NCBI GenBank assembly: GCA_000004695.1
Contig: CM000152.2
Location: forward strand, 5,344,001-5,408,000
DNA from: Dictyostelium discoideum
Lineage: Eukaryota
DNA: 64,000 nt
Reading direction: 5' to 3'
The position numbers and the translations under genes were made by a program. The notes beneath the pieces were generated by a model. That model was not told the origin of the DNA. It did no database searches and saw nothing but the letters and a program-made list of their open reading frames with translations. Positions 21,689 through 41,903 of the stretch are shown here, piece after piece; the stretch's first letter is position 1, and each line of letters begins with the position of its first letter.

Positions 21689-21710
21689 TGTGAAAATAAA
21701 NNNNNNNNNN

Positions 21711-21800
21711 NNNNNNNNNNNNNNNNNNNNNNNNNNNNNNNNNNNNNNNNNNNNNNNNNNNNNNNNNNNNNNNNNNNNNNNNNNNNNNNNNNNNNNNNNN
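21711..21800. other. assembly gap (run of 90 N)
   Basis: Literal n characters flanked by poly-T. Confidence 0.95.
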
Positions 21801-28933: not shown

Positions 28934-31689
28934 TTATCTATATTCTCTTACTAAAAATCTTAAGAAAACATAAGCTAATAATAAATAACCAACAATCATA
29001 CCAAGCAAAACATACATATCAGTGAATAATCTATTTGGATTTGCACCAATAGTTGAAAGGAATTCTAAACCATCAGCATAAGTGGGTCTTGTGTTTGGAG
29101 GATTATATTCAATCCAAAGACCATTGAATTCATTGACAACAGGAATTTCCAAACCATATGACATAAAACTAATCCAAACCAAACCAATTAAATACTTGGG
29201 AATTGAACTTCTTGCCAAAAGGAAACCATCAAATAATAAAAATACAAAGAGTAACAAGATTGACACCATATTTGCAGTACCAAACGTTGGAGAGATTGTA
29301 CTGATTGCCATACACATTGATGAGGCCACTGTACTTGTTAACACCAAAGAGATGAGGAAATAGATGAAATGGAGGATACCAGGACGTAAACCAATCATAT
29401 AATAACAAATTGAACCCAAAATAATTGGTGGTATAACTCTCATTGGAATGATATCGGTTACTACTTTGGCTAAAAAGTATGCTGATGTTCTATAGAAACC
29501 ATTGGCTCTTTCACGAATGAAAATGATACGGTCATTGTAGAAAAGATCTAATGATGTAATACTTCCAAATGAGAGTAAAGCAGTCATGAAAAACATTGCA
29601 CCAAATCTATTTTGACAACCTGGTTCAAGATTGGCTGGTAATTTCCAAAAGAGATAACCTAATGTTAACCCAACAAAAATATGTACAAAGTAAGTGGTAC
29701 GCAAAAGGAAAGGATTTCTCATATAATTTAATAAAGAACGACGGCAAACTACAAAAAATTGTGTCCAAAATGATGTTGCATATTCTTCAACTTTACCAAT
29801 TTTAATATGACTTGCTAATGGTTCACCTTGATTACCAACTACAATAATTGGACTTGCTTCTTCAATATCTTCAACATCATCATCATTATTTTTATTATTA
29901 TTATCATTATTCTTTACTTTATTATTATTATTATTATTATTAATATTATCACTTGCTAATAAATGATCTCTTTCATCACTATCACTATCACTATCATTAT
30001 TATCAATTGATGGACCATTAATACCATATATATGACGATGATGATGATGATGTTGTTGATGATGAATATTTTGATTATGTGGATTATTAATGATACGATG
30101 ATGATTTAAATTAATATCACTATTATTACTATTTGAAGATAAAGCTGGTGAAGTAGATTGATAAAATGGTGAAGCAACACGAGAATCAACATAGGTTGAA
30201 TTAAATCTTTGACAATTTTTATCGGTGACCATTGAAATGATGAAATCTGCAGGATTTTTAAGATGCATTCTATAGTTTTGTTGTTCAAATTCAGTCATAC
30301 CAGCAATTTTCTGTTTAATGAAATAGTTTACAGAGTCCTCTCTTTTACCAGAGAAATAAGGATTACCTTGATGTAAGAGGATCAAATTATCAAATTGTTC
30401 AAAGAGTTCAGCGGAAGGTTGATGAATTGAAAAGATGATAGTACGTTGACCCTTTGTTGAATTGTTTGCCAATTGTTTAAGTTTAGTGATTAACTCTGAA
30501 GCGGAATGACTATCAAGACCAGATGTTGGTTCATCGATGAATAGAATACTTGGATCAACTATTAATTCGGTTGCGATCGATAGTCTTCTACGTTCACCAC
30601 CAGAGATACCTCTCTTCTCTGAGGTACCAATTGGGTTATCGGCCACACGAGTTAAGCCCAACTCCTCCAATACACTTGCGACACGTTGTTGTTTGATTTC
30701 CAATGACATATTCTCTGGAAGTTTTAAAAGGGCAGCAAACATCAAATGTTCACGACATGTTAAAGTACCAATTTGAATATCATCTTGAGTGACATAACCA
30801 GAGATTCTCTTAAAGTTTTTACCAACGGGTGCACCATTGATCAATACTTTACCATCGATGTTACCAACGTTCTTTCTACCCGATAGAATATCCAATAAAC
30901 TTGTTTTACCCGAACCCGATAAACCCATCAATGCTGTCAATTGACCGGGTGGACAAACACCATTGACATTATCTAAAATTTGTTTTCTCTTTACATCCTT
31001 ACCAAAGAATCCACTACGTTCATTAACGTAGCAACTAATATTATGAAAACTTAATTCACAAACTAAATGTGTATCTTCTTTAAAGTTTTTACGATCTTCT
31101 TGAAGTGAGAATATTAAAAAGATTGCACCAATCAATAGAGTCAACCCAATGAATCCAACACCTGACCCAACATAAATGTATAGGAAACTCATTGATGCCA
31201 CTGGTACCGGATAAATGGGTGGTGGTGTTGGTGCACCCGTTGCAACATCAATACATTCACCCGACATACATTGTAATGGAATGGCTGGTAACATTTGATT
31301 GATTGTATATTGTGAGAAAAGACAATTGCTAGTTCCATCTGGATTCGTTTGTGCTCCACATTCAAATGTTGCCTCACCTGTAACTGCACTAATTAAACCA
31401 TCCAATATGAATCCACAATAGGTAGTACAATTACAAACACTATTTTGACATACAATCGATTGATTTTGACCTGGTAAAATAGTACGATCACATTCTGTAA
31501 ATGAACAATTAAAATATAATGGTGATCCATGAATTCTATAATATAAATTCATTGAACAAACTCCTGTTTGTGTATTATAATTTCCACCTGGAAATTGACA
31601 ATCAATTGATGCTGATGCTGTTGAATTATTTAAATCACCATTAACTTCTGCACCTATTAAATTAAAATAAATAATTATTAATTTTTAAT

Positions 31690-31733
<44 letters not shown>

Positions 31734-32503
31734 AAAAACTTACTTGTTACAACACAGCTATAACTTTTTTCAAAATAAGTATAAGGTGAAGAATTACATT
31801 CAAAAGATGAAGAGTAATTACCTGTTAATGCTTGACAACCCTCATTATTTAAACAAACTGTACATTCTAAACCAGCTTGACCAGGTGGACAAACACATGA
31901 TCTTGGTGTTGGATAATTGTAAATTGGTGGACAATATCTACCACCATTACAATTCATTTTATCCCAATTATGTTGTGGATCTACATTCTCTGAACAATCA
32001 TCACCAATGAAAAAATAATTGCAAATACAAGTGGACGAGGTCTCATTGCATTGTCCTTGACCCCAATAGGAATGACAATCATTTGGACATGTTGTTGTTG
32101 GTGTATTATTGAAATTGGTGGCTTCACATGTTTGACCATACCAATAGTTTTGTGCAGATCCTGAACTTATTGCATTTTCACTTCCAAATACTATCATCTC
32201 TATCTTTTGTTCTTTATCATAATCGTAATAATAATCATCACCTCTCATTATCGTTACTGCTTCTGCTGTTGCTGCTGGAACCTCTGTCCAATCGGAATAC
32301 ATATTTGGGTCATCTTTTACTAATTGTTTGGTTTTATACTCTTTTTCAAGTTGATGTTCTCTAAATAATGCATGATTAAAATTTTCATCTAAAAATTGTT
32401 GTGCTGTTTTACAATTATTACCATTGATAAACAATAATAATAATAATAATATTGATTTTAAAATTGAATTGAATCGAATTTCATTATTTTTAAATATTAT
32501 CAT
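28934..32503 (-). CDS. ABC transporter G-family half-transporter (NBD-TMD) with an unusual N-terminal extension: signal peptide, Cys-rich EGF-like ectodomain and an extra TM helix before the NBD; exons 31744..32503 and 28934..31653
   Basis: Exon 1 (minus) begins MIIFKNNEIRFNSILKSILLLLLLFINGNNC (signal peptide), carries many Cys (CPNDCHSYWGQGQCNETSSTCICNYFFIGDDCSENV...) and ends ...SCVVT at a GTAAGT donor (phase 1). The acceptor is aatttaatag, and exon 2 has more Cys-rich sequence plus a TM helix (MSFLYIYVGSGVGFIGLTLLIGAIFLIF). The NBD shows Walker A GLSGSGKTS, signature LSGGERRRLSIA and Walker B ILFIDEPTSGLD. Six C-terminal TM helices follow. Confidence 0.85.
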
Positions 32504-32624
32504 TTTTTAATAATAATTATTATTAATTGTTTAAATTTATTTATCTATCTTTTTATCTTATTTTTATATTATTTGTTTATTTTATTTTATTTTTTTTTTT
32601 GGAATTTTTAAATTGAAAATAAAT

Positions 32625-32663
<39 letters not shown>

Positions 32664-33274
32664 AAAAAAAAACCTTAAAACGTAGGTTTTTTTATTTTTT
32701 TTTTTATTTTTTTTATTTTTTTTATTTTTTTATTTTTTTTTTTTTTTTATTATTTTTTTAATTTGCCATGAAAAAAAAAATAATTAAAAAATTTAAAATG
32801 AAAAAAAATAAAATAAAATAATAAAAAAAAAATAAATATAAAAAAATTAATAAAAAAAAAAAAAGGGTGTGTTTAAACAAAAGATATTAATAAATAAAAT
32901 AAAAAGTAAATAAAAATGAATGATCAAATATTTTTTTTAAAAGATATTTTAAGATTATCTTTATTTGTCTTTGATTTAGTTAAAACTTTTTTTTTATTTT
33001 TTACTTTTTGAAAATTTTTTTTTTTTTTTTTTTTTTTTAGTATTTACTTTTTTTATTTATTTATTTTTTTATTTTATTTTATTTTTTTATTTTTTTTTTT
33101 TTATTATCATTTTCATTAATTTAATACTGTCATTGAAATCTGAAAAAAATCAGATTTGCGGATCTCATTTTTAAAAACCAATTGGCTGAAATCGACTCCA
33201 ACGGTTCTTTTTTTATGTGTTCTATTTTAAACTCTGAAAATATCTGAAATTTTATTCTTTTTTTTTATTTTTTT

Positions 33275-33337
<63 letters not shown>

Positions 33338-33612
33338 TTTTTTGTTATTTGAAAAAAAAAAAATATAGAAAAAAAAAAAAATAAAAGGAAAAATTTTTTT
33401 ATTTTTTTATTTAAACCACTTACTGTGTTCTCTAATACACAAATACTTTTGTATATTTTACTATTTTCTTTTTATCTGAACATATTCAATACTTATATAT
33501 AAAAATAAAATAAAGTAAAATAAAATAAAAAAAAAAAATAAAAAAAAATAAAAAAAATAAAATAAAATAAAGTGAAATAAAATAAAATAAAAATAAAATA
33601 AAAATAAAATAA

Positions 33613-33642
<30 letters not shown>

Positions 33643-33646
<4 letters not shown>

Positions 33647-35529
33647 TTCTGATGATGGATATTAAAATTATGTCGGCATTTTCAATTTTATTTTTATCTT
33701 TGATGGTGTCGAATGAATTTTTAGAATTTTTAGCAAATACGGTTTATGCAGCTATATTATTTATTATAATTTTATTCTTTTATCAAAATCGACAACATTT
33801 TTTTACAACTTCATCATCATCAAAAGATAGTTTAACTTCAACAACAACAACAACAACAACAACCTCAATAACATCATCATTAATACAACAACAACAAGAA
33901 AAAGAACAACAACAACAACTAGAACAACAACAACAACAACAATCAATTAAATTAATAACTAAAGAAATAACAATTGAAAATGATAGTGAAAAGAATACAA
34001 GTACAACAACATCGATTATTACAAAAGAACAATCACCGGGTTCAGTAAGATTAATTCAAAATTATTCAGCATCACAACAATCTGAATTAACAAATACAAC
34101 TATTAAACAATTACAACAAAAGAATCAAGAATTACAAGAACAAATTAATAATCAAATTGAGAAATCAAGAAAGGATCAATTGAAATATTTCAATAGTAAT
34201 AATAAATCACAAAGTGAAATTAAAGAGCAAATTGAAAAGATTATTAAATTAACAGAAAAGAATGATGATTTGTTAAACTCTATAGTGATATTGAATTCAA
34301 CAATCGATGGTAATAGAATAAAGATGCAAGAGATTACAAAGGATCGTGATTCAATCTACTCTAGTGAACAAAAACTATTATCCAGATTAACAGCATTTGA
34401 AAAGAAAGAGAAAGAATATCAAGATAATGAAAAACAATTACAAAAGAAATTATCCGACCAAAAAGATCAATACTCTACACTAAAGAAAGAATTTGATGAA
34501 AAAGTAAAGAAATCTAATAAACTTGAAAATTCAATTCAATCTTTAGAATCTCAAATTCAAAAATTATTACAAAAACAAGAAAAAGAAAAACAAAAATTAG
34601 AAAAAGATAAAGAAAGAGAAAGATCATCATCATTTTCATCAGATATATCATCATCATCAACAACATCAACAACAGCATCAACATTTTTATCAAGTTCTCC
34701 ATCAAAATCAATACCAATACCAATTCCAATTAAAACATCAAATGCCATTAGTGATTTAAAGAGAAATAATAGTAATGATAGTGTTAATGGACTAATTGGA
34801 AATGGTAATTCATCAGTTTCACCACCATCATCATCCTATCTTAGAGAATCATCTGATGATTCTGATAATCAAAGTTCATCCTCACCATCGGAACCAAAAT
34901 TCAAATCATTATTTAATAAAGTTAAATCAGAATCTAGTAAAATTGTAAATAAGGCACAGAAAGGTATAAATAAACATTTAGGTTCAGATTTCTTTACACC
35001 AGCAAATACTACAACATCCACAACAACAACAACATCAACAACATCAACATCAACAACAACTCCTATAACTTCGGCATCAGCAACTGCAGCAGCTATATCA
35101 TCTTCATCAATTATTACTTCACCTACAACTAATACAACCAATGATATATTATCATCTTCATCCTCTTCATCTTCATCATCCTCATCATTATTAACAACTA
35201 ATGCAATATTATCGCCACCAGTTGGTAATGAACAACAAATGGAAGTAATCAATGATAAAACTGAAGTTAATCAATCACCAGTTAAACCATTAATATTTTT
35301 CGATGATTTAGGTAATGATAAATTATTAGATTCAACAACCGAAGAACAAATTCAATCAAAAATGACAATTTCACCAAGAGATAAAGATAGAATTTTAATT
35401 GATAAAGAACAATCATTATCAGATTTATTCATTAATAGTAAAGAAAATATAAGTAATATAAGTGTATCAAATTTAGATAATTTTTTAAAAACCAATAATA
35501 ATAATAATAAAAATAATATAGAAGAATCA

Positions 35530-35609
<80 letters not shown>

Positions 35610-36519
35610 TGATAATAAAGAAGTTAATTCAAAATTAGAATTTTCAATAAAAGATGAAGAGAATAAAATAGGATTAAGAAGAGCAAAGAAGAAATTATCA
35701 CCAGGTTGTTCAACAATGATGGAGGATGTATCAATTGCTATTTATCCATTCTTAAAGGAAAAGAAATTGAGCAATTGTTCAAACATTGGTTTATTTGGTG
35801 TTTTTGATGGACATGCAGGTAGAGGTGCAGCAGATTCTGCTTCAAAATTATTCCCGAAAGAAATTGAAAAATTATTAGAAAGTGGCAATTATAGTTTAAC
35901 TGAACAAGATGATGGTGGTGATAATAATCATAATCAATCGAAACTATTGAATGATTTATTCTCAAATGTCGATAATAAAATGAAAGATCACGAATATGAA
36001 GGTTGCACAGCTACACTCGCATTAATATGGAGTGATGGCGAAGAACAACAACAACAACAACAACGTTATTTACAAGTTGGTAATGTTGGTGATTCATCTG
36101 CTTTCCTTTGTAGAGGTAATGAATCAATTGAATTAACATTTGATCATAAAGCAAATGATCCATCAGAGAAACAAAGAATTAAAGATCAAGGTATACCCGT
36201 TAGTGATAATCAAACTAGAATCAATGGTGTTGCGGTTAGTAGATCTTTAGGTAATCATTTCATAAAGGAACAAAATATTGGTATGATTTCAACACCTCAT
36301 ATCTCAAATCGTTATCTTTTAACCCCTCAAGATAAATTTGTCATCATTGCATCCGATGGTCTTTGGGATGTAATCAATGGTAAAGATGCCATCGAAAAGG
36401 TTTCCTCTTTATATGATCAAGGTGCTACCGCTGATTCAATGGCATCTTGTTTATTAGAAACTGCTATTCAATCTTCATTATGTAAAGATAATGTAACAGT
36501 AATAATTGTAAAGTTATAA
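33643..36519 (+). CDS. membrane-anchored protein phosphatase 2C (PPM family) with an N-terminal TM segment, a long coiled-coil/Ser-Thr-rich region and a C-terminal PP2C catalytic domain
   Basis: The N-terminus MVLMMDIKIMSAFSILFLSLMV...AAILFIIILFFY is hydrophobic. A KE-rich heptad-like region follows (QIQKLLQKQEKEKQKLEKDKERE). The C-terminus carries the PP2C motifs FGVFDGHAGRGAA, VGNVGDSSAF, SRSLGNHF and IIASDGLWDVI. Confidence 0.8.
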
Positions 36520-36750
36520 AAAAAAAAAAAAAAAATAAAAAAAAAAAAAAAATAAATATAAAAAAAAAAAAAAAAATTAAAAAATAAAAAAAAAAAAAAT
36601 AAAACTTAGAATAGAAACCTAAAAACCTTAAAAAAAATTTATTATATTGTTTTTTTAATGTGCAGGCCTGTTTTTTTTTTTTTAAATTTTGAAGTAAATC
36701 TTTTAGTTTTGAAAAATATTTGCAAAGAATTGGAGAAATTCTTTGATTGG

Positions 36751-36795
<45 letters not shown>

Positions 36796-36860
36796 TGTTG
36801 ATCACTTCATTGATTTTTAAGTCTTGTACAAAAATTTTCAGAGAAATGTTATTTTTATAA

Positions 36861-36891
<31 letters not shown>

Positions 36892-37000
36892 AAGAAACAA
36901 ATCAACTTTTTTTTTTTTTTAACCTCTATTGTAAAATACAACCTCAAAGGATCCTGTGGTTAAAGTTTTATTTATTTTTTGTTTTTATTTACTTATTTGT

Positions 37001-37047
<47 letters not shown>

Positions 37048-37149
37048 TTAATTTTTTTTTTCTATTAATAAATAAAAAAAAAAAAAATCTAAAACTAAAA
37101 ATAAAAATAAAAAAATCTAAAATCAAAAATAAAAAAAAAAAAAAAAAAA

Positions 37150-39925
37150 ATGAAAATTTTTAAAAAAGCAATATTTTTAATAATTTTTGTTTTATTAAAT
37201 TTAATTAATTTAATTAAAGGACAGGGCGGACTTACATTCTTTTCAGGTGGTAATTTTAATTTATTAGGACTTTTACCATCAAATACAATTATTGCAATTA
37301 ATGTTCCTAATGTTCAATGTATTTCAAATGATCAACTTTCAATTGAAGGTATTGAAGTTGGATATGGTGGTTCAACAAATATTACTCTAGATATTTTGGC
37401 ACCAATTACTCTTAGAAATGATTTGGATATCAATTTTAATAATACTGTTTATTTTAATATCCCACCTGGTGGATTGGGAATTATGGATGATCATGTTGAT
37501 GTTTCAAGTATTAATTTAAATCAACAAACTTCAAAAATGATTAATATGGGTTCAATGTCTGGTAAAAATAGTTCAATTTCAATTAAAGGTGGTTATTTAA
37601 ATAATAAAAGTAAATTAAATATGAAATCAATTTTAAACACAGGAGGATCATTTATAACAGATAGTTCATCTCAAACGAGTCTTGCAAATTTTCAATCTGT
37701 TGGTGGAGATAATTTTATCCAAGGTGAAATTATATTTGCATCAAGTGATGATGCATATGCTCTTTCATTATCAACTCAATCTCATTCAACACTTTATAAT
37801 GCTCAAGCATCATCATCATTAAAAAATTTTAAAATTTCAACAGCATCAACTTTTAATATGGAATCATCTTATTTCTCTATGAATAGAATCGATCAAGATC
37901 AAGGTTCAATTAGTTTACAAGATCAATCAACAATTTCATTATCATCAAAATCTGGATTAGATTTATTTAATTTTGGTCTTGTAATTAAAGATTCAACAGC
38001 TTTAAATGTTTCAAGTTCAACTATAACAACTGATTCAAATTTTAGAGTACTTTCAACTGCAAATTTATTATTAAAAGAAGAATCATCATTAATCTCCTCA
38101 TCACCAATGTTAATAAGAAATTTCGCAACTGTTAATATAAATTCAAAATCAAATGTTGAAAGTAAAATTTTATACATTTCAGAAGAATCAAATGTAAATG
38201 TAGATGATTCAATTTTAACAGTTGGTTATTCAAGTAATGATCGTGGGGGTAGTAGTAGCAGTTCATCTGATTCATCATCGACAACACCAACACCATCAAA
38301 TCCTGGTATAATTATTAAATCATCAATACAATCATTAACTTCATCATCATTAGGTGTTAGTAATTTTATGGGATTATCTGATAAATCTATTTTATCAATT
38401 AATAATTCATCAAAATTAAATGTAAAGGGTTTATTTGCATTATTAAATGAAACAACAATGTCTGTTGATTCATCATCAGTTTTAATTGAAAAAACATTAT
38501 ATTCATTTAATAATAGTACTATTGGTTCATTTAATTCAACATTTAATATTAGCGATACTTTTGATGTTAATGATGATTCAAAATTTAAATTTATTGATTC
38601 AAATTTATTAATTGAAGGTTCATTTAAAATTAATTCTGATAAAAAAGTATCAAGACAATTTATAAACTCAGACGTTAAAGTTGATGGTAAATTTTTAAAT
38701 TTTGGTACAATTCAATTTAATGCTTCAAGATTTGATTTAAATAGAAATTTCACATCAGTTGGTTTAGTTAATAGTATTGGTTCAAATATTAAAGTTAAGA
38801 ATGGTCAATTTAATGTTTTAGGTTATTATATTGGTGAAAGTGATGAAATTAATTTAACAAATGGTCAAATGCAAATTGGACCAAAAAGTAATTTTAAATG
38901 TTCTGGTTGCTCAATTACTTCAATTGGTAATATTAGACAAGCTAAATCTTCCACTTTAAAATTATTTGATTCAACATTTAATAATAATGGTGTTGGTATA
39001 GTTGAAATTAGTGGTGATATTACATTGGATGAAACTAGTAAACTCTTTAATTCAGGTCTGGTGAATTCATTCTTCAAGCCAATATAAATTTAGAACAACA
39101 AACATCAGCAATCATTGAAAATAATGGACATTTAAAATCATTGATAATGGTGAAGAGAATAATAATAATAATACTTATTTAAATGTAAATTTCGAAAATA
39201 GAGGTGATTTATCAGTTAGTAAAAATTCAGTGTTCCAAAAATTAAATCAATACAATGGTGCAATTTTATCATTAATTAATAATGTAGAAATTCATTCAAA
39301 CTCAACAATTGATTTACAAGGTGGTTCAATTGTTGGTATGGGTTTATTAAATACAACTATTAATAATCAAGCTGGTACAATTGGTAATAATAATATTACA
39401 AAACTTGATATCACCGGAAACTATACTCAAGGTATTGGTGGTACAATTATAGTAACAATTGATAGTATTAATGAATTGTCAACATTTAATATTCAAGAAA
39501 GTGTTAATATACTTGGTGGTAATTTAATAATTAGATTAAATAAACAAATGGTTGAAGATAAATCAAATCAAGGTCAACCAATGTCAGTTATGACTTCAAA
39601 TCAAGAAATGAATGCAAGTTTTAATAGTATTCAATTCAAAACTTATGATCCTTCAAGTGGTGAAGAAACTGACCAAAATGATGATTGTAGATATCAAACA
39701 AAACAAACAAAATCTACTCTTGCTGTATTATTAGGTAGTGATTGTGATACTGCTACAAATGATGAAAGAGGTTTGACAACACCTCAAATCATTGGTATTG
39801 CATTTGCAGGATTTGGTGTCATTTTAGTTGCTTCGTTAATTACAACATATGTTGTTTTCCAAAAATATAGATACAGTGAAAATAGTATAAAATTAAAGAA
39901 ATGGGTATTAAAATTTAAAGCTTAA
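37150..39925 (+). CDS. large secreted Ser-rich repetitive protein with a C-terminal TM anchor (adhesin-like); the reading frame is broken twice (ORF 37150..39087, about 90 bp in an alternative frame, then ORF 39230..39925), so it is either frameshifted by sequence error or a pseudogene
   Basis: It begins with a signal peptide, MKIFKKAIFLIIFVLLNLINLIKGQ. The C-terminus has a TM helix, IIGIAFAGFGVILVASLITTYVVF, plus a short tail. Between 39051 and 39140 the frame changes twice, each time at an A-run (caagcc and ttaaaatc). Adding one A at each site gives a continuous, repeat-consistent ...FFKANINLEQQTSAIIENNGHLKIIDNGEENNNNNTYLNVNFENRGDLSVSKNSVFQKLNQYNG... Confidence 0.5.
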
Positions 39926-40174
39926 TTAATTATATATATATTTATTTTTAAAAAAAAAATTGATTTATTTCAATTATCTTGCGACAACCAACTATTTATA
40001 TATATTTTTTTTATATATACATTTATAAAAAAATAAAAAAAAAATAAAAAGAAAATAAAAATTATTTATATTTAAAAAAATGTTTTATAAAAGTTTAATC
40101 ATTTTTGTTTTTTTTTATTTTCCAAATTATATAATTTTATTTTATTTATTTGAGTTTTTTAATAAAATCATATT

Positions 40175-40618
40175 TTAGAGCTGCATGTTTACATTAATGC
40201 AGGCAATTTCATCATTTGCTTGATCAGTTAAAACAAAATTTCCAGAATATTTACCACGAGGAGCATTATCTGGAATTGCTATATCTACAGAATGAGTATA
40301 ATCTCCTGGTTGTATAGGACAAGGAAATGGATTATCAGATGAACAAATTGGCTTAGTTTCTCTAATAATTGTAATAATACCAAATTTAATTTGAATGTTT
40401 ACATCTCCACCAGATATTGTATCCTTTAATTCACCAGATGCATAAATTGAAACTGTTTGACCTCTTACTGGTGGATCTGGTGAAATTGTTACATTTTTTA
40501 TTTGAAATGTATCTGTTGATTTGCCACAACTTTTCCATATATCTTTGAACATTTTAGCTTCTGCTGCAATTAATAAAATTAAAATTGAAAAAATGAATAA
40601 TAATAATTTTTGTTTCAT
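40175..40618 (-). CDS. ML-domain (MD-2-related lipid-recognition, NPC2 / phosphatidylglycerol-phosphatidylinositol transfer protein-like) secreted protein, 147 aa
   Basis: It has a signal peptide, then W(K/S)xCG...F.I..V.I.PDPPV(R/K)G...I..SG.L...; conserved Cys pairs, a size of about 145 aa and an ...IACI...*  ending typical of the E1_DerP2_DerF2 / NPC2 fold. Confidence 0.75.
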
Positions 40619-41032
40619 TTTTATTTTTTATTAATTTTTATTTGTTATATATATACTTATTATTTATTACTATTGTTATTAAATAATGAATGTAAATATT
40701 AATAAAAAAAAAAAAAAAAAAAAAAAAAAATGATAATGCGATTTAAAAAAAAAAAAAAAAAAAAATTATTATTAAAAAAAAAAAAAAAAATAATCAAAAT
40801 TAAATTTGTTGGTGTGTATTAAGTGTGGGTTCAAATTATAAAAAATTAAAAAACATATTTTTTTTGAATAAAACACAAAAAAATACAAACACAAAATCAC
40901 CACTTTTTCTATTTTTAGTTTTCTATTTTCAGTTTTTTTTTTATTTTTATTTTTTTTATTTTTAAACATTATCCAAAAAAGCAATTTCTGTAAAGAGTAT
41001 TAACCAGTGATATCATGATTTGATTTTTTTTT

Positions 41033-41461
41033 TTAAAGGGTTAATGTAACATCTATGCAAGCAATTTCTGATGATTCTTGGTCAGTTACACTAACATGGC
41101 CCGTGTACTTGCCATTTGGAGCAGCTTCAGGAATTGTAAAATTTATAGTGTGAGAATATTCACCTTCTTTAATTGGACATTTATATGGTGAGCCAGGTAA
41201 AGTACAAATGTCTTTCTTTTCATTTATTAAAGTTATTAATCCAAATTTAACAAGTATTGCAACTTGTCCACTTGTCAAATTTTCACCTAATACTCCAGAA
41301 CCTGAAATTGTAATTAATTTTCCTTTTACTGGTGGGTCTGGAACTATTGAAACAGATGTAATCTTAAATTTTTCATTTGGGCCACAATTAGACCAAATAT
41401 CGCCAAATGATGTTGATGTCAATAAAATTAATAAAATTGATAAGTATAAATAAAATTTCAT
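41033..41461 (-). CDS. ML-domain (NPC2-like) secreted protein, 142 aa; tandem paralog of 40175..40618
   Basis: MKFYLYLSILLILLTSTSFGDIWSNCGPNEKFKITSVSIVPDPPVKGKLITISGSG... is collinear with the downstream copy (about 40% identity, same Cys positions). Confidence 0.75.
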   Translation of the reverse strand: MKFYLYLSILLILLTSTSFGDIWSNCGPNEKFKITSVSIVPDPPVKGKLITISGSGVLGENLTSGQVAILVKFGLITLINEKKDICTLPGSPYKCPIKEGEYSHTINFTIPEAAPNGKYTGHVSVTDQESSEIACIDVTLTL

Positions 41462-41529
41462 TTTTAAAATTGTAAATTTTTTACAACCAAAAAAAAAACC
41501 AAAAAAAAGTATTCTAAATAATATTTATA

Positions 41530-41585
<56 letters not shown>

Positions 41586-41811
41586 CAAAAATTAAAATAA
41601 TAAAAAATAAATTACTTTATAAGGATAAAAGATTTTTTTAAAAATTTAAAAAAAAAAATAAAATCTACTGTTTAACCTTTATCAGTTTTCAGATAAAAGT
41701 GTTTTTTTTGTCTTTTAACTTTTTTTTTTTTTTTTTTTTTTCATTGATTTTAAACAATTACTTTGGCAATTAAATTAAATACTCTTTTTGGAGTATCTCT
41801 AAGAACTGATT

Positions 41812-41844
<33 letters not shown>

Positions 41845-41903
41845 TTTGGGAATAACTTAGAGATAACCAAGAAACATCTTTTAAAGGATAATTTCAAACA
41901 ATA

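Follow-up and report, generated by a model that had tools for sequence, protein, structure and literature searches.

Two bases very probably missing from the AX4 reference sequence interrupt a gene for a predicted beta-helix membrane protein of Dictyostelium discoideum

The locus and its reading frames

The analysed window comprises 64,000 nucleotides of chromosome 3 of D. discoideum AX4 and is very AT-rich, with a GC content of about 0.10-0.35 per kb. Poly-N and poly-Q coding stretches occur in the window, as is usual for Dictyostelium, and an N gap mentioned in the first-pass annotation was found at 21701..21800 (100 N). The gene under study, DDB_G0282131, is located on the + strand and has a length of 2,776 nt as deposited. 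The following features were assigned to the gene and its interruption:

37150..39925, + strand: whole gene DDB_G0282131, a single exon encoding 925 aa after restoring 2 bases
38996..39203, + strand: GT..AG "intron" of the public model, 208 nt, very probably an annotation artefact that skips 70 codons
39057..39058, + strand: frame error 1, with 1 base absent between these positions; A in 7/7 orthologous loci
39058..39127, + strand: out-of-frame stretch of 70 nt, read in frame 0 and encoding (T)GEFILQANINLEQQTSAIIENNG (three-frame translation and orthologue alignment)
39127..39128, + strand: frame error 2, with 1 base absent between these positions; T in 7/7 orthologous loci

Both ORFs described in the first-pass annotation are present. 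The upstream ORF 37150..39087 (645 aa, frame 1) was recovered by ORF listing and three-frame translation, and the downstream ORF 39230..39925 (231 aa, frame 2), which starts with GTG, is also encoded on the + strand. According to the three-frame translation, frame 1 reaches a stop codon at 39085-39087, the open stretch of frame 0 extends from about 39053 to 39180, and frame 2 is open from about 39123/39124 on. The third frame is open throughout the gap between the ORFs. A single frameshift from frame 1 directly to frame 2 is impossible because frame 1 has already ended by 39085-39087, while frame 2 is still closed up to about 39123; given these limits, with frame 0 as the bridge, two +1 corrections are needed for the join.

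Two such corrections had been proposed, namely CAAGCC to CAAAGCC at 39075 and TTAAAATC to TTAAAAATC at 39132. With both edits introduced, the ORFs are indeed joined to a single ORF of 925 aa. In a protein search, this repaired ORF returned Dictyostelium proteins alone, including P0003, the 855-aa AX4 model of DDB_G0282131, and the annotated D. discoideum protein P0001 (925 aa), to which it showed 99% identity at 100% coverage. As the joined ORF matches a real protein of the same length, the join is not a chance effect. The proposal of one gene carrying two +1 frame errors was thereby upheld, but neither the positions of the errors nor their suggested mechanism were.

Comparison with orthologous loci and the origin of the missing bases

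For localization of the lesions, seven orthologous loci spanning five species-level lineages were aligned, i.e. L001, two further strains of the D. discoideum clade, two D. citrinum loci, D. dimigraforme and D. firmibasis. The window gene and its orthologues have the same neighborhood, with a PP2C gene upstream and ML-domain (E1_DerP2_DerF2) genes downstream. Apart from P0001, the orthologues have 72-94% protein identity to the query (BLASTP), while the D. purpureum orthologue P0009 was found by profile match alone (E 3e-170). A comparison with related dictyostelids had been suggested as a check on the interruption; in this comparison, all seven loci proved to be uninterrupted and to carry both bases, including those of D. 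cf. discoideum, D. citrinum, D. dimigraforme and D. firmibasis, and relative to them one A and one T are absent from the window.

At the first site, the window reads GGT^CTGGTG, whereas the other loci read GGT-A-[CG]NGG (GGTACTG in L001). At the second site, ATGG^ACATTT in the window stands against ATGG-T-AC[AG]TTT in the other loci (GGTACA in L001). The reference letters without the bases are GGTCTGGTG at 39057 and ATGGACATTT at 39127; with the bases restored, they read GGTACTGG and ATGGTACAT, respectively. Within 39040-39140, the two allele states can be separated by the k-mer pairs TTCAGGTACTGGTG versus TTCAGGTCTGGTG and AATAATGGTACATTT versus AATAATGGACATTT. The true sites are thus ~20 and ~7 nt upstream of positions 39078 and 39134, where the lesions had been placed. 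Slippage in A-runs, which had been assumed as their cause, was not borne out, since neither missing base lies within a homopolymer. The A-runs at 39075-39080 and 39132-39139 are the same in all close relatives according to the locus alignments. Editing of the A-runs was rejected as the mechanism; it restores the ORF, yet the relatives differ from the window elsewhere. The bridging peptide had also been given incorrectly in part: 9 residues differ, the true sequence being ...NSGTGEFILQANINLEQQTSAIIENNGTFKIIDNGEE... instead of ...NSGLVNSFFKANINLEQQTSAIIENNGHLKIIDNGEE.... Across the gap, complete orthologues read ...NSG(T/S)G(E/N)FILQANIN...ENNGTF... in the protein alignment, compared with ...NSGLVNSFFKANIN...ENNGHL... 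in the earlier version.

The closest of the seven loci, L001 (D. discoideum, GCA_054883475.1), is 99.3% identical to the window over 31089..45953, and long A or T runs that differ in length account for most of the discrepancies in this region. The 2,776-nt gene itself shows 0 mismatches, and two 1-nt gaps are the sole differences. The L001 gene (6001..8778; ACTFIT_011710, encoding P0001) therefore has the same DNA as the window gene except for 2 bases, and it forms one uninterrupted ORF of 925 aa. AX2 and AX4 are both descended from isolate NC4. L001 belongs to a genome set sequenced by Nanopore and Illumina (Holland et al., PMC12745789), and since the laboratory strain AX2-214 is the only one in this set near-identical to AX4, L001 is probably AX2-214. 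The coverage of AX2-214 was 79x versus 8x for the AX4 reference (PMC12745789).

Further differences between the window and L001 were assigned with L008 (D. cf. discoideum) as outgroup. Besides isolated window-private differences at 32662 and 32766, two clusters were found:

33394-33501: patch A, 9 substitutions in ~110 nt, with the window as the outlier at every site (L008 as outgroup)
45405-45505: patch B, ~9 extra single bases and 1 substitution in ~100 nt, with the window as the outlier throughout

Patch B introduces a premature end into a very large gene on the minus strand, the frame of which is open in L001. Both patches look like local low-quality Sanger sequence, such clusters being typical of poor base calling and unlike mutation. 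Differences at 33326 and 36736-36760 appear to be private to L001, which is thus not error-free either.

The first-pass annotation had offered sequencing errors or a recent pseudogene as explanations. Both alternatives were apt, and the evidence clearly favors sequencing error because the near-identical strain and all seven loci have both bases and because private error patches lie nearby. As expected of a reference error, the difference is private to one assembly, and errors cluster in that assembly, with patches A and B both within 15 kb. Very probably, the interruption is not a biological feature but results from two errors in the AX4 reference, and we infer that the bases were lost in base calling or assembly and not by mutation in AX4. 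In that case, the 8x Sanger assembly would have dropped the A after 39057 and the T after 39127, 70 nt apart, and each lost base would shift the frame by one, so that two ORFs appear in place of one. The true locus would be an intact single-exon gene of 2,778 nt encoding 925 aa.

Resequenced AX4-derived lines had 1,916 differences from the reference in common, which were ascribed by the authors to reference errors, differences of the ancestor or mutations that occurred before the experiment (PMC3466296). Several searches gave no additional information on the locus. The exact products of the 645-aa and 231-aa ORFs had no record in public read assemblies, which is neutral either way, and an exact-product look-up for the 855-aa AX4 model also gave no record. 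No paper on DDB_G0282131 or citing the assembly accessions was found by full-text search, and the gene is not mentioned in the supplements of a D. discoideum transcriptome paper (PMC5282741).

The strongest competing explanation takes the two 1-nt deletions to be real, having arisen in the AX3/AX4 lineage after its split from the AX2 line, which would make the gene a very recent AX4 pseudogene; we regard this as improbable. The deposited reference does carry both deletions, and cells in axenic culture might do without a surface protein. Moreover, AX4 has a long history of axenic culture and its ancestor AX3 was mutagenised, which counts in favor of real mutations; nitrosoguanidine, on the other hand, mainly causes G:C to A:T transitions and not single-base deletions, which counts against them. 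Two independent deletions outside homopolymers, 70 nt apart, would be required in a gene of 2,776 nt that is otherwise unchanged, and as their net shift is -2, the second cannot have compensated for the first. Nor is there any of the relaxed constraint or further decay expected of a pseudogene: 0 substitutions separate the gene from L001, and the orthologues have a dN/dS of 0.19-0.29. In addition, the mutation rate of D. discoideum is extremely low (2.9e-11 per site per generation; PMC3466296), and the ~9 inserted bases in 100 nt of the nearby patch B fit no mutational process. More broadly, it is unlikely that the deletions are real in AX3/AX4 and that a conserved dictyostelid protein, a putative beta-helix surface protein, was either inactivated in the course of domestication or saved in the form of an 855-aa isoform through the cryptic splice 38996..39203. 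If this were true, AX4 would be a natural null or hypomorph for this family relative to AX2.

The 208-nt segment annotated as an intron

In the public model, exon 1 (37150..38995) and exon 2 (39204..39925) are separated by the 208-nt segment 38996..39203, and the translation of the window spliced in this way is exactly P0003, which identifies the window as the AX4 reference. Relative to the 925-aa protein, P0003 comes from the same locus but lacks 70 residues (616-685), which every complete orthologue has in conserved form. The statement of the first-pass annotation that no GT..AG intron fits the gap was wrong, as there are 27 GT..AG pairs whose removal yields a single ORF, the pair of the public model among them. 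A real intron as the explanation of the gap was nevertheless rejected after this enumeration on the basis of composition and coding constraint.

It is very unlikely that 38996..39203 is a genuine intron or "exitron" and that the AX4 product is an 855-aa protein with three rungs of the predicted beta-helix missing, and the corollary that the frameshifts sit in spliced-out RNA and are of no consequence is given the same very low probability. GT..AG borders do exist, the splice gives a single ORF, and removal of the equivalent segment in intact orthologues, which comprises 210 nt and is a multiple of 3, would keep the frame. With 27 pairs able to restore the frame, however, one fitting pair means little. 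Introns of Dictyostelium are far more AT-rich than its exons, and 38996..39203 does not have such a composition: its GC content of 25.5% matches that of the flanking exons (24.7% and 26.9%) and greatly exceeds the 8-12% of the intergenic flanks. The absence of coding constraint expected of an intron was not observed either. The equivalent segment is open in 7/7 orthologous loci, and its sole length change among the orthologues is a 6-nt indel that is in frame. The dN/dS of the 70 skipped codons is 0.23-0.25 versus 0.19-0.29 for the whole gene, which indicates the same level of purifying selection, and in an alignment of 95 codons around the segment the variable columns are biased toward the third position (25/12/45 for codon positions 1/2/3). 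Finally, the gene is annotated as a single exon in all six other complete genomes.

Because of its exon-like GC content, its openness in the orthologues, its dN/dS and its codon-position bias, the segment 38996..39203 is coding sequence. Since it is coding and the other genomes are annotated with a single exon, the AX4 intron is very probably an artefact of the gene predictor stepping over two frameshifts. Under the preferred explanation by two reference errors, the automatic model would have bridged the damage via an invented intron and would thereby have removed 70 genuine codons, corresponding to about three beta-helix rungs in the structure model.

Recoding, i.e. restoration of the frame by two programmed +1 ribosomal frameshifts or by insertional RNA editing, is barely conceivable: its sole support is a frame layout in which two +1 events yield the full protein, whereas the near-identical strain and all relatives have both bases in their DNA, neither site has a slippery or homopolymer context, and we know of no such recoding for Dictyostelium nuclear genes.

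The public DDB_G0282131 model (855 aa, one intron) is hence most likely wrong and should give way to one exon of 2,778 nt that codes for 925 aa. The value of this result is practical, for curation, and conceptually it is unsurprising. At least one more error patch, which harms the neighboring very large gene, lies within the same 15-kb region of the AX4 reference, and AX4 gene models are worth checking against newer long-read assemblies. Fields touched by such corrections are knock-out design, proteomics databases and the comparative genomics of dictyostelid surface proteins.

The encoded protein and its relatives

The product of the repaired gene is predicted to be a type I membrane protein of 925 aa with a beta-helix ectodomain. 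It is rich in Ser (14.7%) and Asn (11.6%) and contains 22 N-glycosylation sequons. The following parts can be distinguished:

37150..37221, + strand: signal peptide with a predicted cleavage position, residues 1-24, MKIFKKAIFLIIFVLLNLINLIKG (hydrophobic, with KD>1.6 windows spanning 1-21)
37222..38229, + strand: predicted N-terminal beta-helix ectodomain, residues 25-360
38230..38364, + strand: Ser/Thr/Pro-rich disordered linker, residues 361-405, ...GGSSSSSSDSSSTTPTPSNPG... (pLDDT <50)
38365..39757, + strand: predicted C-terminal beta-helix ectodomain and Cys-containing stalk, residues 406-870, holding both frame errors
39788..39859, + strand: single TM helix, residues 881-904, IIGIAFAGFGVILVASLITTYVVF (KD>1.6 windows 885-905; predicted helix 878-908)
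39860..39925, + strand: cytoplasmic tail of 21 aa, QKYRYSENSIKLKKWVLKFKA, and stop codon; strongly conserved

An AlphaFold2 model was built on six orthologues. Its mean pLDDT of 63.8 is mediocre overall, with values >90 at residues of about 290-360 and from about 410 to 570-600. The model begins with a helix at residues 2-23 followed by beta structure. It is all-beta, with short strands stacked in rungs, and this solenoid superposes on solved beta-helices, which points to a right-handed parallel beta-helix fold. The predicted strands run on through the stretch 616-685 that is removed by the AX4 model (617-664). Indels among the orthologues fall into the linker 361-405, the length of which differs among species, and most positions of the tail are invariant across eight orthologues. 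The protein had been described as repetitive, which applies only loosely, in the sense of degenerate beta-helix rungs: self-BLAST detected no internal repeats in the protein, and the search for tandem DNA repeats (TRF) gave trivial low-scoring arrays at most.

Searches with P0001 gave no Pfam match at E<=0.1, with sub-threshold noise alone (e.g. Scm3, Podoplanin), and a family-profile sequence search against solved structures (PDB) gave nothing at E<=1. A profile search against 1.84 billion representatives yielded 42 relatives. Those with names are all dictyostelid and originate from D. purpureum, Tieghemostelium, Polysphondylium and Cavenderia or are D. citrinum paralogues. The family is uncharacterised and has so far been named from dictyostelids alone. 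DDB_G0282131 is a conserved, uncharacterised gene for a membrane-anchored protein with a predicted beta-helix and no Pfam family.

Among its known counterparts are members of a dictyostelid paralogue family annotated as "putative transmembrane protein", such as KYQ96735 of Tieghemostelium lacteum, DFA_08396 of Cavenderia fasciculata and CYY_009640 of Polysphondylium violaceum. With about 800-1,040 aa they are similar in length to the DDB_G0282131 product, and they are matched by the profile with E values of 1e-47 to 1e-10 over 500-600 residues at the C-terminal end, with the TM region included. These proteins, which are distantly related as paralogues or orthologues, have no Pfam domains, and no function can be transferred from them.

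On the level of the predicted fold, the D. discoideum protein resembles passengers of bacterial type V autotransporters and two-partner-secretion adhesins. The passengers compared were Hap (3syj), pertactin (2iou), Vag8 (7akv), UpaB (6bea), EtpA (8vba), Ag43 (7koh/7kob) and TibA (4q1q); the structural alignments had 6-13% identity, with no detectable sequence homology. Autotransporter domains and passenger repeats (PMP, PATR and similar) gave no Pfam match. The beta-helix fold is also common to lyases, glycosidases and phage tailspikes, and the structural scores for enzymatic beta-helices and tailspikes were almost equal to those for the adhesin passengers. The anchors differ: autotransporters have a beta-barrel translocator, while the C-terminus of the D. 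discoideum protein consists of the TM helix 881-904 and the 21-aa cytoplasmic tail. As it has this eukaryotic TM anchor instead of a beta-barrel, the protein is not an autotransporter, and this identity is ruled out. The earlier description as adhesin-like can be kept as a fold-level analogy only. From this analogy we infer that the product may be a surface adhesin or binding protein, and adhesion and particle binding are reasonable candidate functions.

Dense difference patches in the AX4 reference

For the comparison of the window with the near-identical orthologous locus L001 (D. discoideum GCA_054883475.1, inferred to be AX2-214), the D. cf. discoideum locus L008 was used as outgroup. Two patches were distinguished:

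Window 33394-33501: substitution patch, intergenic, upstream of the PP2C-domain gene at 33643..36519
Window 45405-45505 (L001 14239-14330), minus strand: dense difference patch within the coding region of one very large gene

The intergenic patch carries 9 substitutions in about 110 nt relative to L001, for the most part A/T transversions, and by the outgroup all 9 are private to the window. It looks like a low-quality reference stretch. In the coding patch, the AX4 window has about 9 additional single bases and 1 substitution compared with L001, and L008 sides with L001 at all sites. The window frame of the very large gene runs into a stop (after ...NFILRFL), while about 25 further codons are open in L001. 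This is probably another reference error patch, affecting the AX4 model of this gene.

Assembly gap and upstream homopolymers

Window 21701-21800: assembly gap of 100 N within a stretch with a GC content of about 0.10
Window 36750-36792, 36862-36894, 36990-37050 and 37128-37149: A/T-run segments, intergenic, upstream of DDB_G0282131

The intergenic DNA upstream of DDB_G0282131 includes a (TTTA)n array as well as poly-A and poly-T tracts of great length. Here, homopolymer lengths lie 2-15 bases apart between the AX4 reference and L001, and either assembly may be wrong.

Orthologue start in a D. discoideum-clade strain

L002 2768-3100 (GCA_054859355.1): scrambled start of the DDB_G0282131 orthologue ACTFIW_005898

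The first ~330 nt of ACTFIW_005898 are scrambled patchwise with stops in all three frames, thereby giving the annotated 838-aa protein a late start and a made-up N-terminus. The scrambling is either a fault of the assembly or a real defect at the 5′ end of the gene in this strain.

Gene neighbourhood

Window 33643..36519, plus strand: upstream neighbour, long Ser/Thr/Asn/Gln-rich protein
Window 40175..40618, minus strand: downstream neighbour, small secreted ML-domain (E1_DerP2_DerF2) protein
L008 14183-14945 (= L003 7183-7945), D. cf. discoideum: DDE_Tnp_1_7 transposase-domain gene (Pfam PF13843)

In D. cf. discoideum, the transposase-domain gene is located downstream of the orthologue between the two ML-domain genes; at the corresponding position of L001 it is absent from the gene calls. 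The gene order around DDB_G0282131 is kept in every species examined: the D. firmibasis counterpart of the upstream neighbour has a Pfam PP2C match, and one or two small secreted ML-domain proteins are encoded downstream of the orthologues.
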